Origin: an uncultured Alphaproteobacteria bacterium
GTDB taxonomy: Bacteria > Pseudomonadota > Alphaproteobacteria > Rs-D84
Direction of reading: 5' to 3'
Length of the DNA stretch: 64,000 nucleotides
Assembly (NCBI GenBank): GCA_944392815.1
Contig: CALXXY010000001.1
Span: 133,141-197,140 of the forward strand
A model generated the notes under the pieces. The model ran no database searches. It was not told the DNA's origin and saw only the letters and a program-made list of their open reading frames with translations. The position numbers and the translations under genes are program-made. Positions within the stretch are counted from its first letter, which is position 1, and every line of letters begins with the position of its first letter. Below, one piece after another: positions 6,930-48,095 of the stretch.

Positions 6930-7005
6930 GGCCCCATCGTCTAGAGGCCCAGGACACCGCCCTTTCAAGGCGAGAACACCAGTTCGAATCTGGTTGGGGC
7001 TGCCA
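6930..7005 (+). tRNA. tRNA-Glu (TTC)
   Basis: ggccccatcgtctagaggcccaggacaccgccctttcaaggcgagaacaccagttcgaatctggttggggctgcca. Confidence 0.9.
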
Positions 7006-7236
7006 AAATAAATAACGACCCGTTTGGGTCGTTTTTTTATTTTGCTGTCTGCCCCCAGATTTGAACTGGTACAGTTCGTGCGCGAAGTTGGTGAAAACAC
7101 GCATTGCGTGTTTGAACCTTACGAGCCGAAAGGGGCCCGCCATGCCGCCAGGCATGGTGGGAATTACAATCTGGTTGGGGCTGCCAAAATAAATAACGAC
7201 CCGTTTGGGTCGTTTTTTTATTTTGCTGTCTGCCCC
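6986..7236. repeat. Tandem direct repeat: ~70-bp unit (3' 19 nt of tRNA-Glu + terminator) present twice, 181 bp apart
   Basis: 6986-7055 is essentially identical to 7167-7236 (aatctggttggggctgccaaaataaataacgacccgtttgggtcgtttttttattttgctgtctgcccc). Confidence 0.85.
7012..7040 (+). terminator. Rho-independent terminator after tRNA-Glu (duplicated at 7193-7221)
   Basis: cgaccc-gttt-gggtcg + T7. Confidence 0.7.
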
Positions 7237-9448: not shown

Positions 9449-9591
9449 TATGTTTCTCCTTTGGTTATATGCACGCCATAATTTTAAACAGTGCCCGCGG
9501 GCAAATAAACAGGACTGATTTCACATGCCATTTTTCACTTGAGTCATATGAATAAAATTTCTATGATAAAAATAACGAAAGGGGTGACAAC

Positions 9592-10776
9592 ATGGGGAAA
9601 ATTCCGTATTTCTGGGTATTTATGGGTTTGGTGTTGGCGGCATGTACTGATGGTGGGTCGCCTTCGGCGGGGCATATCAACATGCGGCCCGAGGGTATGA
9701 CCCCAGGTCGCGGCCCTGAGACCGACACGGTCAAGGGCAGTAATAATGCCGTCACCGGTATGATTGTCACAAACAAGGCGCAGGTTATTAATTATATCGC
9801 GAGTGAGTTCAAGGGCGCCCCGACATGGGAAAATAAAACGTCCGACAATACGCTTATTGCCAATGCGGCCATTGAAATCGCCAGTGGCGAATACAGCACA
9901 TATGACGCGGAAAACAGTGGCGTATGGGGGCCGGCGCTGTGGGTGGTGTCGCATGATTTATATTCCACGTGCGGGTCGGCGGAAAATGTTGCTAAATGCG
10001 TATCCGATTGGCGTACGGAAAATCCTGATGTGGTCAGCCAGGAACTGAATACACTGTTGCGTAATGCACAGGCACTGGATATCACAGACGCGATTTTTGC
10101 AGACGCGGAAAATACACAATTGCACTTTACCGTTGGCGAAAACGGCAAAATCGACAGCATCGTACTGGGCCGCACAACGTATGGGCGCGACAGTGACAGT
10201 GGAAACGTGTTCACGGCCGAAAACGGCAGCAGTGTGACATATGACAGTGGTGCAACTTTGGCGCAAAAATTCCAATTGTCGTATTCTGATTTTGGAACAT
10301 ATCAAATCACGACCAATGATGTTGCGGGACCAAAAATCGCCTTTGCTGGTGGGTACGGTGATAAACGTATTGAGATAGCAAACGTTGCCGCGTTGGACGG
10401 CAAAACGACAACGTTTACCGGCAAAGCCATTGGGACCGTCGCAAATGGCAATAAAACAATAGATTTGGACGGCAGTGCGACATTGAAATTTGATGACACG
10501 GGGGCTGCGCCTGTGACTACGTTGGGCGCCACCGGATTTTCCAATTGGTACAGTTTTACCGTCACCCAGGAATCTGACCAAAATCCAACAATTCAATTTG
10601 ATACAAGTTTAACCAATAAAGTCCCCGAAGGTTTCCAGGTCGAGGGCAATGGCGATGTATCCATGAATGTCGGATATTATGGTCCAAATGCCGATACACC
10701 GATAGAGGCCACCGGACTGGTACAATATACCGAGGGCGATATAAAGATGGACATGGCGTTCGGTGTTAAACAATAA
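9592..10776 (+). CDS. Surface lipoprotein, TbpB/fHbp-like (Slam-dependent SLP candidate) 1
   Basis: Lipobox LVLAAC; C-terminal ...YSDFGTY...FAGGYG...FTGKAIG...YYGPNADTPIEATGLV...MDMAFGVKQ shared with the next ORF. Confidence 0.65.
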   Translation: MGKIPYFWVFMGLVLAACTDGGSPSAGHINMRPEGMTPGRGPETDTVKGSNNAVTGMIVTNKAQVINYIASEFKGAPTWENKTSDNTLIANAAIEIASGEYSTYDAENSGVWGPALWVVSHDLYSTCGSAENVAKCVSDWRTENPDVVSQELNTLLRNAQALDITDAIFADAENTQLHFTVGENGKIDSIVLGRTTYGRDSDSGNVFTAENGSSVTYDSGATLAQKFQLSYSDFGTYQITTNDVAGPKIAFAGGYGDKRIEIANVAALDGKTTTFTGKAIGTVANGNKTIDLDGSATLKFDDTGAAPVTTLGATGFSNWYSFTVTQESDQNPTIQFDTSLTNKVPEGFQVEGNGDVSMNVGYYGPNADTPIEATGLVQYTEGDIKMDMAFGVKQ

Positions 10777-10797
10777 ATAATCGCAGGGGGAACGGGC

Positions 10798-12054
10798 ATG
10801 AAGCGAACTTTGGTTGCCACAATCAGTGTGCTGATGTTATTAACCGCATGTGCAACGGACAACAGTTCGCCAACGTACCCGATGGGCAGTGACGGATATG
10901 TGCCCAGGCCGGTAAATCCAGCCACGGGTTTTGAAAACACCGATGATTACGTTGCGATACGTGACAATCAAAACATCACACCAATGTACATGCGCAGCGA
11001 AAATCAGGTTGCTGATTATATCGATTATCGATTAAATGAATGGGATTCTTTTAATCCAGATTTTGGTGATGATGTTAATCGCGGGGATATCGCGGCGGCG
11101 GCGCTGTTTTTGACCAACCCAGATTTAACAGCCAAGGATATAAATAACTATTTCAATGGCAAAGAACAACTGTTTCACATGGCGATGTATGTCATAGACA
11201 ATCGTTTGGACAGATGTTTTGATGGGGGCACCACCCCGGCGGCGTGCTTTATTGATTGGCGCGATGATAAAACTGATGATTTTAATGCCATTGCCACAGA
11301 AATAAAAAACAATGCCGTGGTATTATATCCAACGGAATCTGGGGAAAATCAGGCCATATTTAAAACTGATTCAGATAAACTGTTAACGTTTATTTTTGAC
11401 AATGATTCTGGTCGCATTTCTGGAATAAAATTTGGTGCGGGTGATAATGCAACACAATATTCCACTGGTGACGGTCATGTGTTCGAACAAATAACCGACG
11501 ATGCAATAAAAACATTACAGTATGATTCTGTGTCACGCGCAGATGGTGTTGGACTGACGTATTCTGATTTTGGGCATTATTATACACAAACACTGAATCA
11601 AAACAGCGAAATATCGGATATGGGCAGTGGCGTTTTTGCAGGCGGATATGCGTCAAAGCAAATTACACCAGATGTCGCCAAATTTAACAAAACCGCATTT
11701 TCTGGCAAAGCGGTTGCCAAGGTGACGCCCACTGATAACCAATCACACAATTTTTATGGAAATGCAACTTTATACGTTGACACGAATGGCGACACAAATT
11801 TAACCGCGGACTTTGCAGATTGGTATACTGTTGTTGCGGAATCAACATTGGGTTCGTCTGGGGCACAATTCACATTCACTGGCAACGACCAGAATATTGA
11901 TGAAAAATATCGTTTTAACAACGATACATTATCGGGCACCATGAATATCGAATATTATGGACCAGATGGCACCACCGTGACCGAGGCCGTAGGCCTGATT
12001 AACGTGGCGGAACAAAACGGTTTGCGCGCCGATATGGCATTTGGTGTAAAGTAA
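10798..12054 (+). CDS. Surface lipoprotein, TbpB/fHbp-like (Slam-dependent SLP candidate) 2
   Basis: Lipobox LLTAC; C-terminal ...YSDFGHY...FAGGYA...FSGKAVA...YYGPDGTTVTEAVGLI...ADMAFGVK. Confidence 0.65.
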   Translation: MKRTLVATISVLMLLTACATDNSSPTYPMGSDGYVPRPVNPATGFENTDDYVAIRDNQNITPMYMRSENQVADYIDYRLNEWDSFNPDFGDDVNRGDIAAAALFLTNPDLTAKDINNYFNGKEQLFHMAMYVIDNRLDRCFDGGTTPAACFIDWRDDKTDDFNAIATEIKNNAVVLYPTESGENQAIFKTDSDKLLTFIFDNDSGRISGIKFGAGDNATQYSTGDGHVFEQITDDAIKTLQYDSVSRADGVGLTYSDFGHYYTQTLNQNSEISDMGSGVFAGGYASKQITPDVAKFNKTAFSGKAVAKVTPTDNQSHNFYGNATLYVDTNGDTNLTADFADWYTVVAESTLGSSGAQFTFTGNDQNIDEKYRFNNDTLSGTMNIEYYGPDGTTVTEAVGLINVAEQNGLRADMAFGVK

Positions 12055-12058
12055 TATT

Positions 12059-13435
12059 TTGAAAAAAATAGTTCTGATTATTTGTTTTGTTATGTGTTTG
12101 CCTGGGGTGACCCGGGCAAATTCTGCGTTGGGCACCGCGGGGGTGGCCGACAACAATTCCACCCCGCGCGAAGTGACCATGTCCGCACTGGACGCGATGA
12201 AAATGGTTGGCGCAATGGTGGACAACGGCGAATTGGATATGGCCGAACAAATTCTGGACAAAATGCCTGCGTTTGGGGGCGGGCCGCTGGAAATAGAACG
12301 TTGGTTTTTGACCGCACGAATTGCCGCATACAGGGGCGATTTTGACACTGCAATTGATATTTATCGCGATATTTTGGACGCGCACCCAGATTTGGCACGT
12401 GTGCGTTTCGAATTGGCTGTGTGCTATATGAAAACAAAACAATGGTATCGCGCGGATTATCAATTGCGCCTGGCCATGGCGGGAAATGATTTGCCGGATA
12501 ATATTCGGCAAATGATGAACTATTACCGTTATGTTATTCGGCAAAATAAAAATTGGAATGTTTGGTTTAATTTTGGCGCGGCACCCGATAACAATGTTAA
12601 CAATGCCACCGGTGGCCAGGAATGCGTTATGACGCCGCTGGGGCCGTTGTGTCACAATTTAGTGGAACCTGAATCTGCGGTCGGGTTTAATTTGGCATTC
12701 GGGGGAAATTACGAATTTAAATTGTCCGAACAGTGGCGCTGGAAAACCGAGGCCGGCATATATTCCAACACGTATACTTTGCATGATTATGACGATTTGT
12801 ATCTGTATGCGTCAACGGGCCCGCGATTTATCTGGTCGCGGGGTGATGTATGGGCCGCTGCGGTTGGGTCGCGGCGTTGGTATGGGTGGGACAAATATAA
12901 TTGGTCGGCCGGTGGCCGCATTGGCGCCAGTTATGATTTTACCCGCAAATTACTGGGGCGGTTGGATTTTCAGATTACGTCCAACAAATACGATGTTTAT
13001 GCAGAATATCTGAACGGCGAAACGTATTCGTTGAATACTGAATTGTTTTATTCCATTTTGCCGAATTTTTATACTGTATTGCGCACAGGCGTCGCACGCG
13101 AATGGGCGGCGTCGGAAACATATTCGTATTGGACCCCGCGCGTCAGTATCGGCATTGGCGCAGAATTGCCGTGGGGATTCAATCTGTATGTGGAACCGGC
13201 GTTTTATTGGCAACTGTATGATGGCCAGCAATGGTCTGTCCAGGACGGTTGGTTCAAACGGGTGACTGAACGCGATTTTTCGCAACGCTATGCCGTGTAT
13301 TTATCGAACAATAAATTTGACGTTATGGGGTTCGTGCCGACGGTCGTGTTCAGTTATACCCGCCGCGATTCCAATATATGGCAACGTGAATACGACAGAT
13401 GGGCGGTGGAATTTACAATGTCCCAACGTTTCTGA
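12059..13435 (+). CDS. Slam (surface lipoprotein assembly modulator): N-terminal TPR + C-terminal DUF560 outer-membrane barrel
   Basis: TTG start; signal peptide MKKIVLIICFVMCLPGVTRA; TPR-like ...ARIAAYRGDFDTAIDIYRDILDAHPDLARVRFELAVCYMK...; C-terminal half is aromatic-rich beta-strand sequence ending in F. Confidence 0.7.
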   Translation: MKKIVLIICFVMCLPGVTRANSALGTAGVADNNSTPREVTMSALDAMKMVGAMVDNGELDMAEQILDKMPAFGGGPLEIERWFLTARIAAYRGDFDTAIDIYRDILDAHPDLARVRFELAVCYMKTKQWYRADYQLRLAMAGNDLPDNIRQMMNYYRYVIRQNKNWNVWFNFGAAPDNNVNNATGGQECVMTPLGPLCHNLVEPESAVGFNLAFGGNYEFKLSEQWRWKTEAGIYSNTYTLHDYDDLYLYASTGPRFIWSRGDVWAAAVGSRRWYGWDKYNWSAGGRIGASYDFTRKLLGRLDFQITSNKYDVYAEYLNGETYSLNTELFYSILPNFYTVLRTGVAREWAASETYSYWTPRVSIGIGAELPWGFNLYVEPAFYWQLYDGQQWSVQDGWFKRVTERDFSQRYAVYLSNNKFDVMGFVPTVVFSYTRRDSNIWQREYDRWAVEFTMSQRF

Positions 13436-13445: not shown

Positions 13446-13472
13446 ACGGCACCGATTGGTGCCGCGTTTATA
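13446..13472. terminator. Bidirectional terminator shared by Slam and rpmG
   Basis: cggcacc-gatt-ggtgccg hairpin with T-runs on both strands. Confidence 0.5.
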
Positions 13473-13494: not shown

Positions 13495-13674
13495 TTAGTG
13501 GGGCATTTTAGCTTCGGTCATTACGACATGTTTACGCAGTTTCGGATCGTATTTGCGGAATTTCATTTTACCGGCGGTATTTTCCGAACGCGTGTTTTTT
13601 GTTGTTGTATAGAAATAGCCAGTTTCTTTGTTTTCCAGCTTTACAACTTCTTTGCTGCCTTTCTTTGATGCCAT
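13495..13674 (-). CDS. rpmG: 50S ribosomal protein L33
   Basis: 59 aa [59 protein letters not shown]; below the ORF-track size cutoff. Confidence 0.85.
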
Positions 13675-16278: not shown

Positions 16279-16579
16279 GACAGTGATAAAATTAAAACAT
16301 TTGAAAAAAAATAACAACTGAAAAAAATTGCACTTTTTTGACTTGCAATTTATTTTTTTATGTATATATGTATATACAAACTTTGGTTCCCCATTTTTGG
16401 GGCGGGCTGCTGGGGTTTCTGGCAAGTCGGGGCATTTGAATCCGTTTCAGATGTCTGAATGTACGCGACGCGCATATGTCGGCGTTGCGAACCAATCAAA
16501 CAAAACATAAAAACGAACTGTGGTGAAACTGGCCATGCGCGCCAGTCGGCCATTTTGATTGCAAAGCAGGAGGACAATT

Positions 16580-17320
16580 ATGCACATATTAAAAAGAACC
16601 GTTCCGTACGTGCTGTCCAGCGCAGCTGTGATGTTCGGCATAGGAAATATTTCCAATTCAGGCAATCGCGTTGGCAAATATGCCAGTCCTGATACACAAT
16701 TCATTGCGGAAATTCGTCCCGCCCCAAAAACGCCACTGGTGCTGGATTTTGTATCAGACACAAACAAAGACACGGACAGCAGTGCCGTCAGTGCCACCGC
16801 CGCACGATATGATGTTATATACACCCGCGCAAACGGCAACCAATTCCGTCGCAGTGGGGGCACACGCGCATGGCGCAATAATAATCCGGGGTGTTTGCGG
16901 TATTCTGAATTTACTGTGACCCAGGGCGCAATTGGACACGCCGGCGGATTTGCTGTATTTCCCGATGATTCAACCGGAATGCAGGCAATTTGTGCACTGT
17001 TAAAATCGGACAGTTATCGTGATTTAACTATATCCCAGGCGATTTTCAAATATGCCCCGCCCCATGAAAATGATACTGAAAACTATAACGCCAGTTTGCG
17101 GAAAATTACTGGGCTAGATACGGCCACAAAATTATCCGCACTGACCGATGAACAAATTATGCGCGTGGCGCGCGCAATCCGCGTGGTCGAGGGCTGGACC
17201 CCCGGTCGCGAAACATATATCTATGTCGCGCCAAAACAGGTTCCATCACGCGACACAGTTGATTTTTATGCCGCGTTGCAAAATCAGATTGTGCAAAAGC
17301 AATTTGAACGGGTAATATAA
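16580..17320 (+). CDS. Secreted/anchored protein with conserved C-terminal 'RAWRNNNPGN' domain (paralog 1)
   Basis: aggagg RBS; MHILKRTVPYVLSSAAVMFGIGN signal/anchor; C-terminal ~140 aa match 18955-19971 (GGTRAWRNNNPGCLRYS...GFAVFPDDSTGM...YAPPHENDT...EGWTPGR). Confidence 0.55.
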   Translation: MHILKRTVPYVLSSAAVMFGIGNISNSGNRVGKYASPDTQFIAEIRPAPKTPLVLDFVSDTNKDTDSSAVSATAARYDVIYTRANGNQFRRSGGTRAWRNNNPGCLRYSEFTVTQGAIGHAGGFAVFPDDSTGMQAICALLKSDSYRDLTISQAIFKYAPPHENDTENYNASLRKITGLDTATKLSALTDEQIMRVARAIRVVEGWTPGRETYIYVAPKQVPSRDTVDFYAALQNQIVQKQFERVI

Positions 17321-17323
17321 AAA

Positions 17324-17347
17324 ATCGCGCCATTGGCGCGTTTTTTA
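17324..17347 (+). terminator. Terminator after paralog 1
   Basis: cgcgcc-att-ggcgcg + T6. Confidence 0.65.
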
Positions 17348-17348
17348 T

Positions 17349-17624
17349 TTATGACAATTTATTTTTTATTTCGCGTATGCGGGCCAAAATTTCACGCAAA
17401 TCGGCATCTGTCACCGTGGGGGTGGGACGATTATGAATTTCGTCCGCCAATACTATGCACAATGTTGCCAACAGTGCATTTTCCGGCAATGGCCCGATTT
17501 TATCCAATATTTCGCGGGCGCGCGCGTCCACCATTTTGCCCAATTCTATCAGGCGGCCTTCTTGGCCATCTTCGCAACCCATGGGGTAATTTTTGTTGAC
17601 AATTGGTATGGACACAACACTCAT
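17349..17624 (-). CDS. Hypothetical small protein
   Basis: 91-aa ORF, ATGA-overlapped with the upstream ORF; no recognisable motif. Confidence 0.3.
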   Translation of the reverse strand: MSVVSIPIVNKNYPMGCEDGQEGRLIELGKMVDARAREILDKIGPLPENALLATLCIVLADEIHNRPTPTVTDADLREILARIREIKNKLS

Positions 17625-17929
17625 TTCAAATTCTTTAGTATAGATATGGATTGATTTATCATTTCCGTGGCATTGGCATTTTTTTCACGCAGGGTGCGCA
17701 CCTGTTCGGTCAGGATTGCAACCTCCAGATCCGTTTGTTTGCCGGCATTAACCGCCACGGAACGCAATTTTGCGGCCAAATCTTCGACTGTGGCCAATTC
17801 CTGAAAAATTTGTTGTTTTAAATCGGACATATTATCAGTGTAAGATATTTTTTGCATGCGTTCAACACTAAAATGTGGTATAATGTCCGCATCAAGTGGG
17901 GGATTTATTTCAATGAAAACTAAAATCAT
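17621..17929 (-). CDS. Hypothetical small coiled-coil protein
   Basis: 102-aa ORF; heptad-rich QQIFQELATVEDLAAKLRSVAVNAGKQTDLEVAILTEQVRTLREK. Confidence 0.3.
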   Translation of the reverse strand: MILVFIEINPPLDADIIPHFSVERMQKISYTDNMSDLKQQIFQELATVEDLAAKLRSVAVNAGKQTDLEVAILTEQVRTLREKNANATEMINQSISILKNLK

Positions 17930-18935
17930 TTACATTTCGGGTAATGAAGTATTTGATATGGCCGATATTCGTGCCGCTTTTGAAGAGGTTAGAAACACAT
18001 TACACCTGGGGTCGGACACGGTTATGTTTGGCGTGCCGGTTGATAATGATGACGCTTTTGCTGGTGCGGTGAAAACCGATGATGTTGCGCCCGTGCAGGT
18101 TGTGGAAACGGCGCCGGAAATTGATGATGACGTGGCACCTGTAATCACAAGCGTGGCGGTGGCAGATGTTGTACCCGAACCCGAAACTGTGCCCATGAAA
18201 AAATCCACAAAACGCGGTCGGGCAAAAAATAAAGTGACCCAGCCCGTTGTGGACGCGACCCCAGTTGATACGGACGAAAACGCGGACACGCAAAAAATTA
18301 TTCCTATATTATCAGTTTTGGGCGGAAAATCGGAATCTGCGTTGGATAACGCAACCGAAATTTCCGATACAAAATCCGACACGGTCGATGAAATAACAGA
18401 TGAAAGCGCGACGGATATTCCCGATATTGATATCAGTGCTGAATTTGATTCTGTATCCGTGGCGGCCGATGGCGACGATACGCCACATGCGGAAATTGTC
18501 GATATGATAACCGATGACGCGCCCGAGGCACCAATCGAAAAGACACTGGAACAGTTATTGGAAAGCATGACCCCCCTGCGCGAAGATACTGTCGAAGATA
18601 TCGTCCCCACCACCAGCGATGAAAATGTTTCCCCCGACATTGATTTGAATGATCTGGTTGCGGACGATACAATCGACAATGCGGGCGACGGTGATGCAAC
18701 GCTGGAAAAACTGGCGGCGGAATTTGCCGAAAATCAGGATAAAATTCCTGAGACACCAAAACCTGAATCACACAGCAAAATCGGAAAATTAAAAAATATT
18801 CTGCCATTTAAAAAGGCCAAACGCGAAGATACCGGCATTATGGGCGATTTGTTCGGCTGGGCCGGGATTGCAGCCAATGACGATGATTTTTCTATACCGG
18901 GATTTTTTACCCAGGCGGCGTCTTCTAAAAAATAG
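17913..18935 (+). CDS. Highly acidic, low-complexity (D/E/T/V-rich) protein, hypothetical
   Basis: gtggggga RBS + ATG at 17913 (MKTKIIYISGNEVFDMADIRAAF...); long acidic disordered stretch. Confidence 0.45.
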   Translation: MKTKIIYISGNEVFDMADIRAAFEEVRNTLHLGSDTVMFGVPVDNDDAFAGAVKTDDVAPVQVVETAPEIDDDVAPVITSVAVADVVPEPETVPMKKSTKRGRAKNKVTQPVVDATPVDTDENADTQKIIPILSVLGGKSESALDNATEISDTKSDTVDEITDESATDIPDIDISAEFDSVSVAADGDDTPHAEIVDMITDDAPEAPIEKTLEQLLESMTPLREDTVEDIVPTTSDENVSPDIDLNDLVADDTIDNAGDGDATLEKLAAEFAENQDKIPETPKPESHSKIGKLKNILPFKKAKREDTGIMGDLFGWAGIAANDDDFSIPGFFTQAASSKK

Positions 18936-18954
18936 GCAGATTTTATGATTTCAT

Positions 18955-19971
18955 ATGAACACGGATACAATTATTAGATTACTGCAAAATTCTGGATTCC
19001 ATATTTTGGGAATCGATAACTCGTATTTGTATCTGGAAGATCCATCGTGCGTATTACGCAGTTTTGAGACGTTTATCGATTATGCCTGGATTGCCATTAC
19101 ATGCATAGTTGGGGTGTTTTTATTCGGCTGGGCTATATCGATGATACGGGGGGCGAAAACTGACTATTTTACCAATTTACGAAATTTAATCATTATGCTG
19201 GGCACGCTGTCTGCGGGCGGATTTATTGTGAATTTAATCTGGGGTGATGATTTATTTGCACGTGGGTGTCGCACTATTCGCGTGTCCGTCGATGAATTAA
19301 ATACTGTGTTGGATATGCGAAATGCACAACTGTCACAATATAACGAATTTAATTTTTATGAACATTTCGAAATTGACGATTCTGGGGCAACTGCGTATGC
19401 AGATGCACCGCTGATGGCGGCCGGGGCGCCGGTTGATTTACAATCTGTGACTGTGTCCGGTGACGATGATGCCACCCAATTCCAGCCAAATCAGGATATC
19501 GCCGCATCGTATCCCGCAAATGCCCAGTCCCCAGTCAGCGCGCAGGAAATGTCACGCGATGTTGTATACACCAACAGGGACGGCACGCGATACAGAAAAA
19601 CTGGCGGTTCGCGCGCATGGCGCAATAACAACCCGGGCAATATCAGGTATTCTGCATTTACACGTCGTGCCGGCGCCATTGGCCAGGCCGGCGGTTTTGC
19701 CGTATTCCCGGACGAGTCCACCGGTATGCGCGCCATATCATCGTTGTTGCAAAGTGACAGTTATATAAATCTGACCATTGCGGGCGCAATCAGTCGCTAT
19801 GCGCCGCCTGTGGAAAACGATACCGCTGCGTATCACAGATCCATTCAAAAACTGACCGGGCTGTCCATCAATCGCCGTATTAGTGATTTAAGCGAAGCGG
19901 AACTGTCGCGTGTGGCAAATGCTATTCGCCAGATAGAGGGCTGGTCGGTCGGACGAATTGTATCTATGTAA
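18955..19971 (+). CDS. Membrane-anchored protein with C-terminal 'RAWRNNNPGN' domain (paralog 2)
   Basis: TM helix WIAITCIVGVFLFGWAISMI; C-terminus GGSRAWRNNNPGNIRYS...GFAVFPDESTGM...YAPPVENDT...EGWSVGR. Confidence 0.55.
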   Translation: MNTDTIIRLLQNSGFHILGIDNSYLYLEDPSCVLRSFETFIDYAWIAITCIVGVFLFGWAISMIRGAKTDYFTNLRNLIIMLGTLSAGGFIVNLIWGDDLFARGCRTIRVSVDELNTVLDMRNAQLSQYNEFNFYEHFEIDDSGATAYADAPLMAAGAPVDLQSVTVSGDDDATQFQPNQDIAASYPANAQSPVSAQEMSRDVVYTNRDGTRYRKTGGSRAWRNNNPGNIRYSAFTRRAGAIGQAGGFAVFPDESTGMRAISSLLQSDSYINLTIAGAISRYAPPVENDTAAYHRSIQKLTGLSINRRISDLSEAELSRVANAIRQIEGWSVGRIVSM

Positions 19972-19990
19972 AAAAAAACTGGGGGAAATT

Positions 19991-20635
19991 ATGAAGCGCA
20001 ATCAACAATCTGGGAATGTGGTATTTAATATTTTATTGGTCGTTATGTTTATCATAATCGGCGTGTTGATTTATATACTGGCGGGTGGGCCGGTGCCTAA
20101 ATTGGGCGATACGCGTGGTGTTCAATCCCCAGACATGGAATTTACAGACGACGATGCAACCGTGGCGCAAATTACGTCACGCGATACCGGCGAATTTTCA
20201 GATGGTTTGGTGCGCCCCAGTTTTTCTGAACAATATCCGTTGGACGAATTCGGGGCGGGAATTGCCGAACGGGCTGTGTTTGACATCGATATTAACGATG
20301 ACGGGCGCATGGACAGAATTACCCGCGTTCGCAATGAAAATGGGACTGACCATGGGTATTACGAGTATAAAATTGAATTAAATCAAAATGGGAACTGGGT
20401 TGATATTACCCCCGATGGTTTTCGCACGACCGAGGGCGCAGAATGCGCGTTGCAAAAATTACAATTTAATTTTCGCCCGCAATTCAGCGTTGTAAAAATT
20501 TCGCGCAAATGGTCTGAAACATGGGTCACACCAACAATGGCCACGCGGACGGTGTACACTTTTAACGACGGAAAATTGCAGGCGTCTGCGCCCCAGGAAT
20601 TAAAAACTGTATGTGACGTGACAGATTTATTTTAA
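19991..20635 (+). CDS. Hypothetical single-pass membrane protein
   Basis: gggggaaatt RBS; MKRNQQSGNVVFNILLVVMFIIIGVLIYILAGG TM segment; rest unknown. Confidence 0.4.
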   Translation: MKRNQQSGNVVFNILLVVMFIIIGVLIYILAGGPVPKLGDTRGVQSPDMEFTDDDATVAQITSRDTGEFSDGLVRPSFSEQYPLDEFGAGIAERAVFDIDINDDGRMDRITRVRNENGTDHGYYEYKIELNQNGNWVDITPDGFRTTEGAECALQKLQFNFRPQFSVVKISRKWSETWVTPTMATRTVYTFNDGKLQASAPQELKTVCDVTDLF

Positions 20636-22101: not shown

Positions 22102-23091
22102 TTATTTCCTTCGTTTAATGGCCATTTTCATTGTGCGCATGGCCAATTTCAGTGCAAAATCACGCAATAATATTTCGCCCGGCATACCAGTCGTGCGCAG
22201 TTGCTGTTCCAATTCGGTCAAACGCTGCAATACCGCAACCAAATCATTTTCTGACCAGATTTTCACAGCCAATTCGAATTTATCCTGGACCTTCCAAAAC
22301 AGGCGGGGCAATTGACCTTCGACAACGGCGGTCAACAGGCGTTTAAAATGTATATTCAGCATGCGAACCAGCGCATTTGGATCAACACCGTTGTACAATA
22401 ATCTGTCCAATGCGGTCATTGTTTGCTGGATATATCCGGCGGTCAAAGAATATAAAAAATCGTCCATGCTGGCCGCGCCTGTATCAGGCAGGCATTTTTC
22501 TACATCGTCCAGTTCAACTGTTTTTTTATCGTTAACATACAATGCGATTTTTGCCAAAAAACCACGCGTAATGCCACGATCGCCCCCCAGGTGCGATGTC
22601 ATGTACGCCATGGCATCGGGGGTGATTTGCTGAATCCCCGCGTCGGCGGATAATTCGCGACGTATTAATGCCGCCAGCGCACGCGCATCGTCCGTATAGC
22701 ACGGCAATGTCGCCAAATCTGTTGCGTTTTCAAACAACGCGCGCAATCCACCACCCGCGCGCAAATCGCCGGCCGCAACAATAACAGTCGCACACAGGCC
22801 TGAATGCGTGACCAATTCCGAGATTAAATCAGCGTCACTGTCGCCGGCGTTGGATATTATCACCATTTTGCGACCACCAAACATAGATGGACTGCAACTT
22901 TCCGCGAACAGTGCGTCTGTTTTGTCACGCAGTTCGTTTGAATCCAGGGCGAACAGGTTATCTTTTTCAATTTCCAATTTTTCAACCGCACGATCACAAA
23001 ATTCGTCCACCTGGCCTGCGTCAGGGCCATATATTAACACTGCACGAATTTTTTCAATGCCGGTATTAAAATCAGATTCTTTCCATTTCAT
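22102..23091 (-). CDS. holA: DNA polymerase III delta subunit
   Basis: MKWKE...VLIYGPDAGQVDEF...; position downstream of lptE as in many Proteobacteria. Confidence 0.75.
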   Translation of the reverse strand: MKWKESDFNTGIEKIRAVLIYGPDAGQVDEFCDRAVEKLEIEKDNLFALDSNELRDKTDALFAESCSPSMFGGRKMVIISNAGDSDADLISELVTHSGLCATVIVAAGDLRAGGGLRALFENATDLATLPCYTDDARALAALIRRELSADAGIQQITPDAMAYMTSHLGGDRGITRGFLAKIALYVNDKKTVELDDVEKCLPDTGAASMDDFLYSLTAGYIQQTMTALDRLLYNGVDPNALVRMLNIHFKRLLTAVVEGQLPRLFWKVQDKFELAVKIWSENDLVAVLQRLTELEQQLRTTGMPGEILLRDFALKLAMRTMKMAIKRRK

Positions 23092-23626: not shown

Positions 23627-24865
23627 ATGATGAATATTTTTATGATGATTTTGGTCGCGATATTCATGGTTGGATTTTATATGATAAGCAGCCCCAGCCA
23701 ACGCGTGACAGAACAGGAAACTGAATACGCAATTAATAAATCTGATATGCGGTCAATTGCTGAATGCGCGTCGGCCAAACACAATGCACAAATCAAGGGC
23801 ACCGAATTCAATGATGTTTGTGTGGAACAAAATCAAATCAACAGCCAATTTGTATGTCTGAATTCCAACATGCGTATAACCAGTTGCGAAATTACACGAA
23901 ATAAACGGCCTGAATACAGTTATATCGTGACCGCAACCACACCAATTGATGTCGACAGTTATAACGATATGCTGGAAATACTGGAAGAATATTTCCCAGA
24001 CGCCGGCACATTCGGCATATTTATGGACGGCAAAATTATGGTTGGGGGATTGTCTGGGGCACGAATTGTACCGGACGCCATTATTGATGAAATGGAATTA
24101 ACCAACGGGCAACTGATATATTTCACGCAATATGAAATCCCAGACGAAGAAACTGTTTTCACTGCGCCTGTGCAAACCGATGTTATTTGCCCGATTGGAA
24201 CGGTTAAAACATACAGATTCGGCCGGTGGCAATGCATAGGATATAACACAAAAACAGATTGTGGCGGTGATATGATTTGGGATTCTGAATTGTTAATGTG
24301 TGTGGCCGATGAATCAAAAAAGCCACTGTGTGCGGAACAACAAACGGCTGTGTTGGTCGACAGTGTATGGGAATGCGTGAACCCGTTTCCTGAAAAAGTA
24401 TGTCCAGACGGCATGATTGCACGATTGAATTATAATACACTGGAATGGGAATGCGTTGTAAATCCAAACGAAATTGCAGATACTAAGAAATGTGACACTG
24501 TGTCCCAGGGCGTTATTTTCGGCCCGGTTGGTACAACCGCACGCGTGCCGACAACATCATGCACAGATTGCGAAACTATGATTACAAATCCAGACACGTG
24601 CGAATCCGTGTGCGTGCCCGACCCGTCAAAAATTAACGACCCGGCATGTTATAGTGCCACCGGCGATTGCAGTGGCCCGTCGCGCGGATATTATTTCGGT
24701 TTTCCATCGTATTCATATGCCACGCACGTTGACGCAGTTGCCGGGTACACAATCCCACTGGACGCGGCACATTCACAAAATCGCAAATTTAACTGTTTGG
24801 ATTGTGGCGATGGCGAAATAGATTCAGAAAAATCGTTGCCGCCGTATATTTCTGTGTGCAAATAA
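23627..24865 (+). CDS. Cys-rich membrane-anchored protein, hypothetical
   Basis: N-terminal TM (ILVAIFMVGFYMI); ~30 Cys in the periplasmic part; no known motif. Confidence 0.45.
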   Translation: MMNIFMMILVAIFMVGFYMISSPSQRVTEQETEYAINKSDMRSIAECASAKHNAQIKGTEFNDVCVEQNQINSQFVCLNSNMRITSCEITRNKRPEYSYIVTATTPIDVDSYNDMLEILEEYFPDAGTFGIFMDGKIMVGGLSGARIVPDAIIDEMELTNGQLIYFTQYEIPDEETVFTAPVQTDVICPIGTVKTYRFGRWQCIGYNTKTDCGGDMIWDSELLMCVADESKKPLCAEQQTAVLVDSVWECVNPFPEKVCPDGMIARLNYNTLEWECVVNPNEIADTKKCDTVSQGVIFGPVGTTARVPTTSCTDCETMITNPDTCESVCVPDPSKINDPACYSATGDCSGPSRGYYFGFPSYSYATHVDAVAGYTIPLDAAHSQNRKFNCLDCGDGEIDSEKSLPPYISVCK

Positions 24866-27961: not shown

Positions 27962-28327
27962 TAAATTTTCTCTTTGGTTAATATGCGAATTATTTCACAT
28001 ATATATGAACTATACACATTTTTGGGCCGGAATGACAACCTATTTCATTAAATGGGCAAAATTCACAAAAACTTGTCAAAAAAAGCGGTCATTTATCCGT
28101 CAATTTGTCAATATATAGATATTGATTCGTTATTTTTTATCTATATTTTGTATTTTTGATAAAAAACCGAATCATTTCCCAGGTGAAAAATCTGATTTTT
28201 TTAATACAAAAATTCGTTTGGTATCCGATTCAAGTGAATCGGACAGGCGTCAATGCCCCGGAAAATCCCCTTTTTAAAAAGTAAAGCGAAAAATAAAAAT
28301 TTTTTTCATTTTTATGTGTTGTTAGTA

Positions 28328-28386
28328 ATTCATATATACTATATATTGTTATCAAATAACGGAAACAACCACTATATATTGTGTTT
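28328..28386 (+). promoter_or_regulatory. Two candidate NrdR boxes upstream of nrdD
   Basis: tcatatatactatatattg and accactatatattgtgtt, ~35 bp centre-to-centre, 25-80 bp upstream of the nrdD ATG. Confidence 0.4.
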
Positions 28387-28408
28387 TAAGAATATTGGGG
28401 TATATAAA

Positions 28409-30463
28409 ATGGCTGGGACAGAAAACGATAACAAAATGCAGATTATTCCGACACTTACCACGCGACTGAAAGTTGTTCAGAAACGTTCTGGGGAATCGGT
28501 TCCATTTGATGCGAAAAAAATTTTTGACGCTGTGAAAAAGGCGGTTGCCGTCACGCATGAAATTTCGGACGAGCAAATTGTCGCCATTACGCAAAGCGCG
28601 CTGAATAAATTGGAATCCAAATTTACAGAAAAAAATCCAACAGTCGAAGATGTCCAGGAATCGGTTATTGAATCGCTGATGGACGCGCGTGCGTATAAAA
28701 CTGCGGAATCATATATTATATATCGTCAAAAACGCAGCGAAATTCGTGATTCGTATGTTGACGCGGTCGAAATTATCGAGGGCTATGTCGGTGGTTCCAA
28801 TTGGCGTATCAAGGAAAACGCCAATATCGGTTATTCCATTGGCGGGTTGATTTTGCGTACATCTGAACGTGTGACCGCAGAATACTGGTTGAATTTATAC
28901 CCCCGCGAAGTGGCCGAGGCCCACAAAAACGCCGCGATACATATTCATGACCTGGGGTGGTTGACTGGGTATTGCGCGGGTTGGTCACTGCGCGAATTAT
29001 TGTACGAGGGATTCAACGGTGTTCCCGGATATTTACAGTGCGAACCCGCCAAACATATGGCAACTGCGATTTCCCACATGGTGAATTTCCTGGGGACATT
29101 GCAGAATGAATTTGCCGGTGCCCAGGCGTTTTCGTCCGTGGACACATATCTGGCCCCATATGTCAGAATTGACAATATGACATATGCAGATGTTAAAAAT
29201 GCTATGCAGACGTTGGTGTTTAACTGTGCTGTGCCATGTCGTTGGGGCACCCAGACACCGTTTATCAATTTCACATTTGACTGGACCTGTCCCGAAGATT
29301 TAAAGAATCAGCGCCCATTCGTTGGCAAAAAGCAAATGGATTTCACATATGGCGAATTGCAAAACGAAATGGACATGATTAACAAAGCATTTCTGGAGGT
29401 CATGACCGAAGGTGACGCCCTGGGGCGGCCGTTTACGTTCCCTATTCCGACATATAACATCACAAATGATTTCCCGTGGGAACACCCGAATGTCAAACCT
29501 TTGTTTGATTTGGCGGCAAAATACGGTATTCCGAATTTCCAAAACTTTCTGAATTCCGATTTGAATCCGACAGATGTGCGTTCTATGTGTTGTCGGTTGC
29601 GTCTGGACGTGCGTGAATTGTTAAAACGTGGTGGCGGACTGTTTGGATCGGCGGAAAAAACGGGTTCTATTGGTGTGGTGACAATTAACCTGGCACGGTT
29701 GGGATACACGCACAAGGGCGACCGCGAAGGTTTATTCCGCGAATTAAAACGTTTATTGGATTTGGCACGTGATTCGTTGGAAATCAAACGTCGTATTATT
29801 ACCAAAAATATGGAACGCGGACTGTATCCGTTTACCCGCAGATATTTGGGCAATTGGGATCATCATTTTTCAACCATCGGTGTGAATGGCGCAAATGAAA
29901 TGGTGCGTAATTTCACAAACGATCGCGAAAATATCGCAACGCCAATGGGTAAAAAACTGGTGCTGGATTTGATGGATTTCATTCGTGAAAATCTGGCCAC
30001 GTTCCAGGAACAAACCGGCAACCTGTATAATCTGGAGGCCACCCCAGCCGAGGGCTGTTCATACAGATTTGCAAAAACAGACGTGAAAAATTTCCCGGAT
30101 ATTATAACCGCCGGTACCCACGACGCGCCGTATTATACAAATTCGACGCAGTTGCCTGTGAATTACACAGACGACCCGTTCGTTGCCCTGGAACACCAGG
30201 AAGAATTACAACGCAAATATACTGGTGGAACTATGTTGCATTTGTATATGGGCGAACCTGTTTCCAGTGGCGAAGCCGCGGAAAAAATCGTGCGTACGAT
30301 TTTCGAAAATTACAAGATTCCGTACATGACGCTGACACCGACATTCTCGATTTGTCCGAAACATGGGTATTTGCCTGGCCGGCACGAGTTTTGTCCGAAA
30401 TGCGATGCTGAAATCGCGGCAAATCAAAATGCGGAATCCGCAACAGTTTCACAAGAAAAATAA
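28409..30463 (+). CDS. nrdD: Anaerobic ribonucleoside-triphosphate reductase (class III), lacking the glycyl-radical tail
   Basis: Start at ATG 28409 (MAGTENDNKMQIIP..); ATP-cone (VQKRSGESVPFDAKKIFDAV); C-terminal Zn site ...ICPKHGYLPGRHEFCPKCDAE; stops at TAA 30461 before the glycyl-radical motif. Confidence 0.85.
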   Translation: MAGTENDNKMQIIPTLTTRLKVVQKRSGESVPFDAKKIFDAVKKAVAVTHEISDEQIVAITQSALNKLESKFTEKNPTVEDVQESVIESLMDARAYKTAESYIIYRQKRSEIRDSYVDAVEIIEGYVGGSNWRIKENANIGYSIGGLILRTSERVTAEYWLNLYPREVAEAHKNAAIHIHDLGWLTGYCAGWSLRELLYEGFNGVPGYLQCEPAKHMATAISHMVNFLGTLQNEFAGAQAFSSVDTYLAPYVRIDNMTYADVKNAMQTLVFNCAVPCRWGTQTPFINFTFDWTCPEDLKNQRPFVGKKQMDFTYGELQNEMDMINKAFLEVMTEGDALGRPFTFPIPTYNITNDFPWEHPNVKPLFDLAAKYGIPNFQNFLNSDLNPTDVRSMCCRLRLDVRELLKRGGGLFGSAEKTGSIGVVTINLARLGYTHKGDREGLFRELKRLLDLARDSLEIKRRIITKNMERGLYPFTRRYLGNWDHHFSTIGVNGANEMVRNFTNDRENIATPMGKKLVLDLMDFIRENLATFQEQTGNLYNLEATPAEGCSYRFAKTDVKNFPDIITAGTHDAPYYTNSTQLPVNYTDDPFVALEHQEELQRKYTGGTMLHLYMGEPVSSGEAAEKIVRTIFENYKIPYMTLTPTFSICPKHGYLPGRHEFCPKCDAEIAANQNAESATVSQEK

Positions 30464-30493
30464 CTAAACAAAAAAAACAGGGAGGAAAACATT

Positions 30494-30679
30494 ATGGCAG
30501 CAGAAAACACGCAAAGAACACAATGTGAAGTATTTTCACGTTCAATGGGGTTCATCAGACCTGTGTCCAATTTTAACATTGGCAAATATTCTGAATTCTG
30601 CGAAAGAAAAACGTTTACCGAAGCGAACAGTTTAACAACTGGTCAGCGTCATAGTGAACTGATGAAAAAAGCTGCATAA
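30494..30679 (+). CDS. Separate 61-aa ORF encoding the NrdD glycyl-radical C-terminal motif
   Basis: cagggagg RBS 8 nt before the ATG; CEVFSRSMGFIRPVSNFNIGKYSEFCERKTF matches the NrdD SR..GY.RPV..WN.GK..EF..RK.. glycyl-radical region; same reading frame as nrdD, separated by one in-frame TAA. Confidence 0.55.
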   Translation: MAAENTQRTQCEVFSRSMGFIRPVSNFNIGKYSEFCERKTFTEANSLTTGQRHSELMKKAA

Positions 30680-30682
30680 GTT

Positions 30683-31384
30683 ATGAGAGAGATTCAGATT
30701 GGTGGATTGGTGTCGTTCACGACAATCGATTACCCCGGGAAATTGGCCGCGGTGCTGTTTCTGGTGGGTTGTCCGTTGCGGTGTGCGTATTGTTCCAATC
30801 CCCATCTGATACCATTGCACGACGGCGAATACGATCCTGAAAAGGTGTTTGATTGGCTGAAAAGCCGCGTTGGCAAGCTCGAGGCCGTCGTTTTTTCCGG
30901 GGGCGAAGCGTTGATGCAGGGCGACGCGTTGATTGATTATATGCGGCGCGTGCGTGAATTGGGATTCGCCATCGGATTACATACCAACGGTTTTTATCCA
31001 GAAACACTGGCACGCGCGGCCGATGTCGTGGACTGGATTGGTTTGGATTATAAAACTGTGCGCAACAAATACGGCGATTTGGTTGGGCAAAATATCGCGC
31101 ACGACCATATGGTTCGCAGTTTGACCACGTGGCAATCCACCGGCAAAGATTTCGAGGTTCGTATTACCTGTGACCCGCGTTTTGTGACCAAAATGGATTT
31201 GCTGGAAATCGCAAATGATTTGCATGCGCGTGGTGTGAAAAAATTCGCTGTACAGAAATATATCCCGCATTTCGAGGATTCAACCCATAACACCACACCA
31301 GAACAGCGCAATCAATTTTTTTCTGATGACAATTTACGCGATACAATTAATGCGCTGTTTGATTCTGTCACCTGGCGCGAATAA
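30683..31384 (+). CDS. nrdG: Anaerobic RNR-activating protein (radical SAM)
   Basis: CPLRCAYCSNPH CX3CX2C cluster motif; 233 aa. Confidence 0.85.
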   Translation: MREIQIGGLVSFTTIDYPGKLAAVLFLVGCPLRCAYCSNPHLIPLHDGEYDPEKVFDWLKSRVGKLEAVVFSGGEALMQGDALIDYMRRVRELGFAIGLHTNGFYPETLARAADVVDWIGLDYKTVRNKYGDLVGQNIAHDHMVRSLTTWQSTGKDFEVRITCDPRFVTKMDLLEIANDLHARGVKKFAVQKYIPHFEDSTHNTTPEQRNQFFSDDNLRDTINALFDSVTWRE

Positions 31385-31448
31385 TCGTGATTTTTCCACT
31401 GTTTTGTGATATAATTGATGGCATAATTGATGACAAAGGAATTTGTTC

Positions 31449-33227
31449 ATGCCAAAAACTATGTTTGATATCATAAAAAAGCAAAATGGTGAACGTTTTG
31501 CCAAGGCAATTCGCAATTACGACAATGGGATTTTTGATATTCCGAATCTGGATACAATTGTCAAACATGCCGGTCGCGAAGCCGAACCAATTATGGCGTA
31601 TTTAATATCGCTGAAAAATATTGAAATAAACGAAATGGCTGTGCATATGGATCCGATTAAATTGTTGGATCGCGCGGGATATAACGCATATGTGGTGCAC
31701 AATCTGGCCGAACAGAACGCAATCAAAAAATATTTTGCCCCGGGCGAGGAATTGTGCACTTTCCACGATCCGCACAGATTTGAAAAATACTATATCATAA
31801 ACGCTGTACGCAAGGACGTGGATAATATTCGCCGGGCTGATTTTAAAAATCCCAAACGCGAAGATGAATACGGCACATCGGTCATTTCCATTCAGGTATT
31901 AAAAACTGGCGGATTTATCAGTATCAAAAACAGATATAATCACACTGTTGAAAATCCAGATAATACGTTGAATTCGAATCCTGATAATATTATCCCTGGA
32001 TTGGCGGACGCGATAAAGCACCATTTTAACGTGGATTTTGCGTCACATCATGTGGATTTACCAATTAATTATACCACCATGAACAACCAGATTTTAAAAT
32101 ATAATCTGGAGGTTGAAAATACCTATATCGGGCCGGATTTTTACGCACGCGATGGGCGTGTGTTTGACATTAACAAAGATTATGAAATTATTTTGGACAC
32201 AATCGTATTCAATACAAAAACCAAAGAATTCAAATCTATTGCCCACGCGGACGGTGATTGGCAGATGATTAGTGCACTGTCGACCGCCATTAATGGGAAA
32301 AAGGTAAAAATACAAAACGCGGACAACGACACAAAAATACTGATTGCGGGCGATACACCGATTGTCACATTCCAAAACGGGCAAATATTGTCGCTGAATT
32401 TGCCAAACGTGCGCGAAATCGGCAATTATTTTGCGTTGGATTGTCAAAAATTGACCAGCGTGTCTATGCCTGATTTGGAAACAATGGGCACCAACTGTTT
32501 TCAATTTAATACATTGGAACATGTGAATATGCCGAAATTGCGCGAAATCGGTGAAATGTCTTTCTATAAATGCAGAAATTTACAGGAAATAAACCTGCCG
32601 CAGGTGCAAAAAATGGGCAGTTTCTGTTTTACTGGCGTTTATCAACTGAAAAATGTTAATATGCCACAACTGCGATATGTCGGGGATCATATGTTTCACA
32701 CTGCACCCGCGCTGACTGTGTTGGATTTGCCAAATTTGCAACGCATGGGGCAAAACTGTGTTATGAACGCACAGTTGAAAACAGTGAATTTGCCACAGCT
32801 GCAATCTGTTGACAATAATTGTTTTGTGAATGGTTGTGCCGTGACGGAACTGGATTTGCCGAATTTACAGCATATGGGAAATGTCGTGTTTTACGATGCG
32901 CCACAATTACGCAGTGTAAACGCGCCCAAATTGCAAAACATGGGCGCATTCTGTTTCCGCGCCAGCCAAAATGCCACACATGTATATATGCCGCAACTGC
33001 AACATATCAGCCAGGGCTGTTTTGAATCCAATGCAACCGTTTTCGAAAAACTGGATTCCATCAGAAATATTTCCGGCGAAATCGCCCCGGGGGGATTGGT
33101 CGTCGACCCCGCCGTTGATAACAGTGGCACAAAAAAACTGTTCATGCGCGCCATACAGAAAATTACCAATTACGGCAAAACAAAAAATAAAATCACACCA
33201 ACCAAGGATAATCACAATGACCGATAA
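31449..33227 (+). CDS. BspA-type leucine-rich-repeat (LRR_5) protein with unknown N-terminal domain
   Basis: About 13 tandem ~23-aa repeats of the form LPnLq.iG..cF..c..L..vn.P; N-terminal 300 aa unassigned. Confidence 0.6.
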   Translation: MPKTMFDIIKKQNGERFAKAIRNYDNGIFDIPNLDTIVKHAGREAEPIMAYLISLKNIEINEMAVHMDPIKLLDRAGYNAYVVHNLAEQNAIKKYFAPGEELCTFHDPHRFEKYYIINAVRKDVDNIRRADFKNPKREDEYGTSVISIQVLKTGGFISIKNRYNHTVENPDNTLNSNPDNIIPGLADAIKHHFNVDFASHHVDLPINYTTMNNQILKYNLEVENTYIGPDFYARDGRVFDINKDYEIILDTIVFNTKTKEFKSIAHADGDWQMISALSTAINGKKVKIQNADNDTKILIAGDTPIVTFQNGQILSLNLPNVREIGNYFALDCQKLTSVSMPDLETMGTNCFQFNTLEHVNMPKLREIGEMSFYKCRNLQEINLPQVQKMGSFCFTGVYQLKNVNMPQLRYVGDHMFHTAPALTVLDLPNLQRMGQNCVMNAQLKTVNLPQLQSVDNNCFVNGCAVTELDLPNLQHMGNVVFYDAPQLRSVNAPKLQNMGAFCFRASQNATHVYMPQLQHISQGCFESNATVFEKLDSIRNISGEIAPGGLVVDPAVDNSGTKKLFMRAIQKITNYGKTKNKITPTKDNHNDR

Positions 33228-48088: not shown

Positions 48089-48095
48089 CCGTTGT

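Follow-up and report, generated by a model that had tools for sequence, protein, structure and literature searches.

Slam (surface lipoprotein assembly modifier) proteins, the outer-membrane proteins of type 11 secretion systems (T11SS), have been described 'within all clades of Proteobacteria' (Hooda et al., 2017; PMC5449769), and examples are recorded in the Sphingomonadaceae and Rhodobacteraceae (PMC8406197; bioRxiv 10.1101/2024.09.26.615229). The survey by Grossman et al. (bioRxiv 10.1101/2024.09.26.615229) lists alpha-helical effectors in its general scheme for cargo; it recognised cargo either through similarity to domains of known cargo in BLASTP (E ≤ 0.05) or through the Pfam domains TbpBBD and Lipoprotein C. 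One such cargo, the surface lipoprotein (SLP) PmSLP, is encoded beside its own Slam (PMC5449769). Here we describe a locus that probably belongs with these systems. It lies in a stretch of 64,000 nucleotides, referred to as the window, taken from an uncultured alphaproteobacterium (contig CALXXY010000001.1 of assembly GCA_944392815.1, positions 133,141 to 197,140 of the forward strand), and consists of two genes for predicted lipoproteins, LP1 and LP2, followed by a Slam gene.

The three open reading frames (ORFs) are consecutive, lie on the same strand and coincide exactly with the coordinates given in an earlier reading of the letters, the original prediction:

9592-10776, plus strand: LP1, predicted surface lipoprotein and paralogue of LP2 (394 aa, ATG start; ORF, family hidden Markov model (HMM) score 417 bits)
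10798-12054, plus strand: LP2, predicted surface lipoprotein (418 aa, ATG start; ORF, AlphaFold2 model)
12059-13435, plus strand: Slam/T11SS outer-membrane protein (458 aa, TTG start; SlipAM 103 bits, TPR_Slam 36.4)

LP1 and LP2 are separated by 21 nt. The gap of 4 nt between LP2 and Slam, which had been pointed out in the original prediction, exists only if Slam starts at the TTG at 12059. We consider it probable, at roughly three chances in four, that these genes form an operon of the Slam/T11SS kind.

Judged by its sequence, the third gene has the clear signature of a full-length Slam/T11SS outer-membrane protein, with a predicted signal peptide, TPR domain and DUF560 barrel:

12059-12118, plus strand: Sec signal peptide MKKIVLIICFVMCLPGVTRA of Slam (sequence reading; conserved in 14 loci)
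12197-12538, plus strand: periplasmic TPR domain of Slam, approximately residues 47-160 (Pfam and PDB TPR matches)
12554-13432, plus strand: predicted DUF560/SlipAM membrane barrel of Slam, residues 166-458, ending in Phe (Pfam)

The match to Pfam family PF04575, SlipAM (formerly DUF560), scores 103.3 bits (cut-off 22; E 2.2e-29) and aligns residues 166-458 with profile positions 1-288 of 288. A second family, PF24575 (TPR_Slam), matches at 36.4 bits (cut-off 35.2), and together the matches to TPR_19, TPR_Slam and TPR_14, all above cut-off, span residues 47-137. Among PDB sequences the protein matched TPR proteins only, at residues 71-133, and no Slam entry. Its C-terminus, MSQRF, supplies the terminal phenylalanine as the aromatic residue of an outer-membrane barrel. 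The original prediction had called this gene a Slam on the strength of an N-terminal TPR region and a C-terminal barrel with an aromatic end, proposing a DUF560 HMM as the check; the TPR matches, the MSQRF end and the SlipAM match over the full profile bear out both the architecture and the identity.

In public gene calls Slam begins only with the ATG at 12092 (447 aa) and thereby loses its signal peptide, whereas translation from the TTG gives an N-terminus that, read by eye, runs MKKIVLIICFVMCLPGVTRA/NS. Because a TTG or GTG start and a signal peptide (MKK..LPGVTRA/WA) are kept, in the corresponding place, in the longest ORFs of all 14 related loci that carry Slam, the TTG at 12059 is the preferred start, and the ATG start in the public calls is, on this comparison of sequences, a systematic mis-annotation. 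The conserved weak start codon, together with the tight spacing behind LP2, suggests that less translocon than cargo is produced. Homologues of the window Slam are numerous, forming at least 537 clusters at 90% identity; among the 120 clusters listed, PF04575 occurs in all and PF24575 in nearly all, and NCBI names several of them 'MAG: surface lipoprotein assembly modifier [Alphaproteobacteria bacterium]' or '[Rickettsiales bacterium]', MAG denoting a metagenome-assembled genome.

The two lipoproteins are paralogues, 29% identical across their full length (BLASTP E 7e-24). Each begins with a signal peptide and lipobox:

9592-9645, plus strand: LP1 signal peptide and lipobox LAAC, with Cys18 putatively lipidated (sequence reading)
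10798-10851, plus strand: LP2 signal peptide and lipobox LTAC, with Cys18 (sequence reading)

The lipobox contexts are LVLAAC/TDGG in LP1 and MLLTAC/ATDN in LP2. In an alignment of 73 family members a lipobox-like motif is found in 71 and the cysteine is at least 90% conserved. The internal and C-terminal motifs that had been quoted as common to the pair are indeed present: LSYSDFGTY, AFAGGY, FTGKAIG, VGYYGPNADTPIEATGL and DMAFGVKQ in LP1, and LTYSDFGHY, VFAGGY, FSGKAVA, IEYYGPDGTTVTEAVGL and DMAFGVK in LP2, with the motif residues invariant over the 73 homologues. A pair of cysteines further upstream (C127/C136 in LP1, Cys140/Cys150 in LP2) is invariant or nearly so in the family, which suggests a disulfide in an extracytoplasmic protein.

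By sequence the family stands apart. Neither LP1 nor LP2 has a family match in Pfam (E ≤ 1) or NCBIfam, and phmmer found no match for either among PDB chain sequences. Among 5.8 billion proteins, LP2 has 9 relatives and LP1 163, all of them unnamed or 'hypothetical' and from metagenomes or MAGs. A profile built from the 73 members retrieved 515 clusters at 50% identity from 1.84 billion representatives; many of these align only at profile positions ~160-401 and have different N-termini. Ten distant members that share this C-terminal part yielded no domain in Pfam.

The predicted structure gives the family a place. An AlphaFold2 model of LP2, built from the 73-sequence alignment, has a predicted local distance difference test score (pLDDT) of 86.5 and a predicted TM-score (pTM) of 0.82, with pLDDT below 50 at residues 1-35 and still low to about residue 45. 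According to the model, each lipoprotein comprises a tether, a helical head, a beta handle and a C-terminal barrel, with a fold like that of the TbpB C-lobe; domain limits in LP1 were transferred from LP2 by alignment.

10852-10938, plus strand: LP2 disordered Ser/Pro/Gly-rich tether, residues 19-47 (low pLDDT)
10939-11313, plus strand: LP2 helical head, residues 48-172, nine helices, putative effector domain (AlphaFold2)
11353-11649, plus strand: LP2 beta handle or pedestal, residues 186-284, eight strands (DSSP; aligned with TbpB C-lobe)
11689-12051, plus strand: LP2 C-terminal barrel, residues 298-418, putative Slam targeting domain (AlphaFold2, Foldseek)
9715-10065, plus strand: LP1 helical head, approximately residues 42-158 (alignment to LP2 model)
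10090-10356, plus strand: LP1 beta handle or pedestal, approximately residues 167-255, with LSYSDFG and FAGGY (alignment to LP2)
10405-10773, plus strand: LP1 C-terminal barrel, approximately residues 272-394, from FTGKAIG to DMAFGVKQ (alignment to LP2)

DSSP assigns eight strands to the LP2 barrel region, within residues 300-417. When the model was compared with the PDB using Foldseek, the top match was a TbpB C-lobe (5kkx_B; E 1e-7, probability 1.00), followed by many further TbpBs and then by PmSLP (9b3e) at E 1.3e-4; weaker matches were HphA (E 1.9e-3), fHbp (E 6e-3) and the NHBA C-domain (E 1e-2). On the evidence of this model, the matches correspond essentially to the proteins established by experiment, or accepted, as Slam/T11SS cargo. 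The helical head modelled alone is also predicted with good scores (pLDDT 83.5, and above 90 in the core). The original prediction had described the lipoproteins as TbpB/fHbp-like. This holds at the level of the fold, where the TbpB C-lobe is matched at E 1e-7, and fails in sequence, as the TbpB_B_D and lipoprotein_5 profiles proposed as a check on the cargo found no counterpart.

The association between the lipoproteins and Slam recurs in relatives. A genome pattern scan, covering one genome per GTDB species with a 12-sequence subset of the family alignment as query, yielded 22 confirmed loci, all in Candidatus Enterousia species or in gut MAGs labelled 'uncultured Alphaproteobacteria'. In 14 of the 22, a Slam gene is the immediate neighbour of a family member, in at least three gene orders; it is not adjacent in 6, and the other 2 are truncated where the contig stops. 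The Enterousia cassette sits between parC and the gene for oleate hydratase (MCRA), in a slot whose content varies. The order LP1-LP2-Slam is found in the window, L009 and L019, and LP1-Slam in L011, L012 and L014, while a divergently transcribed lipoprotein gene followed by LP-Slam is found in L017, L018, L021 and L022. The slot holds LP1-LP2 without Slam in L005/L010, L013 and L020 (in L005 with rpmG directly after the pair), and only a single lipoprotein gene in L029, again with no Slam. In a deeper clade (L023-L026 and L028) the Slam is only ~54% identical and is preceded by a lipoprotein of ~300 aa in which the C-terminal module alone is common to the family. One member of this clade, L024 (4155-11551; OZ007020.1, a chromosome of 958,618 bp), combines one Slam with four lipoproteins of the family; two have ~430 aa, and the others, at ~310-340 aa, have only the C-terminal module in common with the family. 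Such an expansion of paralogues is notable for a genome below 1 Mb. Of four distant family members sampled, three are encoded immediately upstream of a SlipAM gene; these members share only the handle and barrel, and their SlipAM products are 41-52% identical to the window Slam. Chance adjacency of Slam and the lipoproteins was rejected, since the two are found together repeatedly, under several arrangements of the genes and in lineages far apart. A further locus, L031 (1643-8096; GCA_023665245.1), encodes a distant member of 577 aa between a gene for an autotransporter of 1094 aa and a SlipAM gene; this member adjoins resolvase genes, has several matched stretches and is possibly a multi-module protein.

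The genes of the slot evolve at very different rates. Between species, identity is 91-95% for parC and 88-95% for MCRA, compared with 65-76% for Slam and 36-48% for the lipoproteins. Relative to L009, the ratio of non-synonymous to synonymous substitution rates (dN/dS) is 0.18 for LP1, 0.20 for LP2, 0.05 for Slam and 0.02 for MCRA. In the nearest relative of the window, Ca. Enterousia excrementavium, LP1 is 83%, LP2 95%, Slam 97% and MCRA 98% identical. Within the lipoproteins, mean pairwise identity across the family rises from 34% in the head to 47% in the barrel and 57% in the last strands. As far as sequence comparison can indicate, such conservation, low in the head and high towards the C-terminus, is the pattern expected of a C-terminal translocon signal combined with an exposed, diversifying head, and divergence as fast as that of LP1 and LP2 would be typical of exposed proteins.

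LP1 and LP2 are thus most likely displayed on the cell surface by Slam. The export route that we infer follows the published Slam model (PMC9090332). The preproteins would pass the inner membrane via Sec and be lipidated at Cys18. Lgt is the first enzyme in lipoprotein maturation, and its gene is present in the window, outside the operon:

57129-57959, minus strand: Lgt, prolipoprotein diacylglyceryl transferase (PF01790, 232 bits)

The Lol system, with a chaperone, would carry the lipoproteins over the periplasm. Slam would then recognise the conserved C-terminal barrel strands and thread the proteins through the outer membrane, and LP1 and LP2 would remain on the surface, held by the lipid anchor and a flexible tether of ~30 residues, with the helical head outermost.

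Several observations weigh against this interpretation or parts of it. Surface exposure of LP1 and LP2, and its dependence on Slam, are themselves what we infer from the analysis. Adjacency to Slam is not obligatory for family members, because in six of the 22 loci (L010, L013, L020, L027, L029 and L030) no Slam was present up to 8 kb away. These loci could depend on a second Slam at an unlinked site; one MAG, BRZ_MA__bin39, carries two Slam loci (L021 and L028). None of the 73 family members matches TbpB_B_D or Lipoprotein C in Pfam even at E ≤ 10, the profile of these 73 found no SLP among PDB sequences, and an hhalign comparison of the family alignment with a hand-entered sequence of fHbp from strain MC58 aligned the lipobox only (probability 12.7%). 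For the lipoproteins dN/dS is only elevated (0.18-0.20), with no value above 1 that would indicate positive selection. Finally, a search of PDB folds with the helical-head model gave no match (best E 1.8, probability 0.07), which bears on any role of the head as an adhesin or in binding a host factor.

What the lipoproteins do at the surface is less secure than how they would arrive there. Our leading proposal, offered tentatively and at somewhat less than even odds, is that the variable helical heads bind a surface molecule of the host or of a partner cell and so serve adhesion or immune evasion, as fHbp, NilC or PmSLP do, instead of supplying a TonB-dependent receptor. Such a role would be apt for an organism that depends on others metabolically and has a genome below 1 Mb. 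Members of Rs-D84 have genomes of this size, without most biosynthesis, respiration and standard transporters; they lack a respiratory chain and a tricarboxylic acid (TCA) cycle and have been proposed to be obligate symbionts or parasites (PMC12306168).

The strongest competing account accepts the Slam operon and assigns the cargo to nutrient capture. LP1 and LP2 would be co-receptors of the TbpB/HpuA type or hemophore-like binders of the HphA type, and their ligand, whether a metal, haem, a vitamin or some other metabolite in short supply, would be passed to an outer-membrane transporter whose gene lies elsewhere. The TbpB lobes and the hemophore HphA are among the top structural matches, most characterised Slam/T11SS cargo acquire metal or haem (PMC5449769; bioRxiv 10.1101/2024.09.26.615229), and an organism without most biosynthesis must scavenge (PMC12306168). 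Against this, the scan of 40 window ORFs and the gene tables of the related loci contain neither a TonB-dependent receptor domain nor TonB/ExbBD nor haem oxygenase, and the effector is all-helical, unlike the ligand-binding beta handle or clamp of TbpB or HphA. With no respiratory chain or TCA cycle (PMC12306168), the demand for haem and iron should also be low, and strong diversification suits an antigenic or host-specific interaction better than a fixed small ligand. We regard nutrient capture as distinctly unlikely. Host or partner binding is weakly favoured over it, because no TonB-dependent receptor was found, respiration is lacking, the effector is helical and diversification is quick.

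The weakest alternative holds that LP1 and LP2 face the periplasm as ordinary outer-membrane lipoproteins whose barrel is lipocalin-like, that the synteny with Slam is merely inherited and that Slam exports something else. It could draw on the lack of any sequence model tying them to known Slam cargo, on the six loci with lipoproteins and no neighbouring Slam and on LolA-like half-barrels in the Foldseek list (E ~1e-3), but it is very improbable. The top matches at probability 1.00 are specifically to the handle and barrel of proven cargo (TbpB, PmSLP, HphA, fHbp and NHBA); inherited synteny by itself hardly accounts for adjacency in different gene orders and distant lineages (Slam 41-52% identical); conservation peaks in the C-terminal strands, as it would in a translocation signal; and display on the surface agrees with the rapid divergence and with the long, disordered tether.

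A bolder extension of surface display by Slam is that the family is an uncatalogued class of T11SS cargo forming the main attachment or host-recognition interface of Rs-D84/Enterousia, binding an epithelial, mucus or partner-microbe molecule. We consider this doubtful; if true, Slam/T11SS would be a key determinant of the obligate gut symbiont or parasite lifestyle in Alphaproteobacteria. Enterousia come, as yet uncultured, from the gut of humans, poultry and livestock and are predicted to depend on partners, and the locus provides concrete candidates for the surface proteins with which they meet their environment. The one analysis of Enterousia biology that our literature search found, PMC12306168, mentions just 'hypothetical membrane-bound proteins', and the search found no paper connecting Rs-D84 with surface lipoproteins. 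The exact LP1 sequence is present in public gut metagenome contigs, and its cluster comprises more than 78 nearly identical LP1 variants from metagenomes. Contigs with identical LP1 and LP2 occur in several gut metagenomes, where Slam differs just at its TTG start codon and whichever neighbouring genes are covered are shared as well. Some 500 clusters of 'hypothetical protein' can now be annotated as probable Slam/T11SS cargo, and a helical head with no solved structural relative merits structure determination and a ligand screen. The finding leaves knowledge of the mechanism and taxonomic range of Slam unchanged.

The operon is flanked by genes for MCRA, rpmG, tRNA-Leu and parC, and the following signals and neighbours were read around it:

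9539-9567, plus strand: sigma-70-like promoter candidate TTGAGT-17-TATGAT upstream of LP1 (9/12 consensus matches)
9580-9584, plus strand: ribosome-binding site AGGGG, 7 nt ahead of the LP1 ATG (sequence reading)
10786-10791, plus strand: ribosome-binding site GGGGGA, 6 nt ahead of the LP2 ATG (sequence reading)
13448-13463, no strand assigned: hairpin GGCACC-GATT-GGTGCC between the convergent Slam and rpmG genes (sequence reading)
13495-13674, minus strand: rpmG, convergent with the Slam gene (gene neighbour)

The promoter candidate lies inside a divergent intergenic region of 143 nt common to LP1 and MCRA; the evidence for it is weak, sites of this kind being scarcely enriched in the scan (18 found against 10.8 expected). 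The hairpin is a possible bidirectional terminator that was missed by the terminator scan. Between 9300 and 13700 there are no homopolymers of 8 or more and no meaningful tandem repeats that might signal phase variation. The three operon genes have 43-50% GC compared with 44% for the window and agree in this with the genes around them, a composition that gives no signature of recent transfer. Apart from tRNAs, the window contains no riboswitches or other Rfam elements, and it holds no paralogue of the lipoprotein family beyond LP1 and LP2.

Two further products are candidate surface proteins, a BspA-type leucine-rich-repeat protein of 594 aa (31443-33227, plus strand; PF13306, 115 bits) and an OmpA/Opacity-like outer-membrane barrel of 291 aa (35096-35971, plus strand). 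From ~36000 to ~44000 the GC content falls to 37-40%, with flanks at 45-50%, across a cluster of glycosyltransferase (GT) genes (GT2, GT4/GT1 twice and GT61) and a gene for a NUDIX protein, probably a variable surface-polysaccharide or lipopolysaccharide locus. It is followed by a block resembling a mobile element (~44075-55604; 35-37% GC), which ends at a tRNA-Ser gene (55515-55604, minus strand) and is probably an integrated phage remnant or island:

44075-45466: ParB-N6/N4 methylase fusion
45817-47286: terminase large subunit
48096-49271: HNH endonuclease
49271-51071: two further DNA methylases
51763-53352: large serine recombinase
53358-55286: HATPase_c_3 protein

Elsewhere in the window, a perfect direct repeat of 69 nt (6987-7055 and 7168-7236, spacing 181 nt) overlaps with its first copy the 3′ end of a tRNA-Glu gene (6930-7005) and includes in that copy a terminator-like hairpin, AACGACCC-GTTT-GGGTCGTTTTTTT; either an att-like scar or a small duplication could account for the repeat. 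Genes for an anaerobic ribonucleotide reductase, NrdD, and its radical-SAM activase (28253-31384) are in keeping with strictly anaerobic life in the gut. Pfam at E ≤ 0.001 gave no match for seven ORFs of 225-579 aa (16559-20635, 22102-23091, 23627-24865 and 60506-62245); lineage-specific hypothetical proteins like these are numerous in this group.

Compared with described systems, the translocon itself is ordinary. Slam1 and Slam2 of Neisseria meningitidis, NilB, HrpB and PmSlam have the same plan as the window Slam (signal peptide, TPR, DUF560 barrel and aromatic end), and it too lies directly downstream of lipoprotein cargo with a C-terminal barrel. It differs in its conserved TTG or GTG start, in the lack of a nearby TonB-dependent receptor among the 40 ORFs scanned and in its occurrence in a gut alphaproteobacterium with a reduced genome. 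The original prediction was right that the host is alphaproteobacterial, and the assignment is now to Candidatus Enterousia of order Rs-D84; its view that such a host would be atypical was a weak point. Slams are found in all proteobacterial classes (PMC5449769) and those of Enterousia are already annotated automatically under that name by NCBI, so the host is not really atypical for a Slam.

The system is known and the cargo family is undescribed. The best fold match of the LP2 handle and barrel is the TbpB C-lobe (PDB 5kkx, 3v8u and 4qq1), with a target-normalised TM-score of 0.55, and both TbpB and the window lipoproteins have an N-terminal lipid anchor and a flexible tether. The order of motifs in the barrel (YYGP..EA.G, and an AFGVK end) also resembles that in TbpB and fHbp. 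However, TbpB has two handle-barrel lobes where LP1 and LP2 have one, the place of the other being taken by a helical bundle of ~125 residues. Identity in the structural alignment of LP2 with TbpB is 11-15%, with no Pfam TbpB_B_D match, and TbpB and LbpB are encoded adjacent to the receptors TbpA and LbpA, whereas LP1 and LP2 have no such neighbour. With a single lobe, a helical head and no adjacent TbpA-like receptor, identity with TbpB was rejected on architecture, as was identity with fHbp, for which the fold match is weak (E 6e-3). PmSLP (Pasteurella multocida, 9b3e), fHbp, NHBA and HpuA, Slam-dependent surface lipoproteins whose heads bind host factors, have like LP1 and LP2 a single C-terminal barrel and a distinct N-terminal effector, and members of the PmSLP group are likewise variable surface antigens with no coupled TonB receptor. 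The effector is helical in the window lipoproteins and beta-rich in fHbp and PmSLP, and the two have no detectable sequence relation. Lacking both TbpBBD and Lipoprotein C domains and any sequence similarity to known cargo, the family was probably missed by the survey of Grossman et al., and surveys that rely on these domains or on BLAST to known cargo probably overlook such families in general. The LP2 model fits exactly the scheme 'effector - pedestal - 8-stranded barrel' set out in the survey of Grossman et al. (bioRxiv 10.1101/2024.09.26.615229). The novelty lies in a cargo family that is an orphan by sequence and has a helical head without a match, and that has expanded and evolves fast in a gut lineage of reduced genomes.

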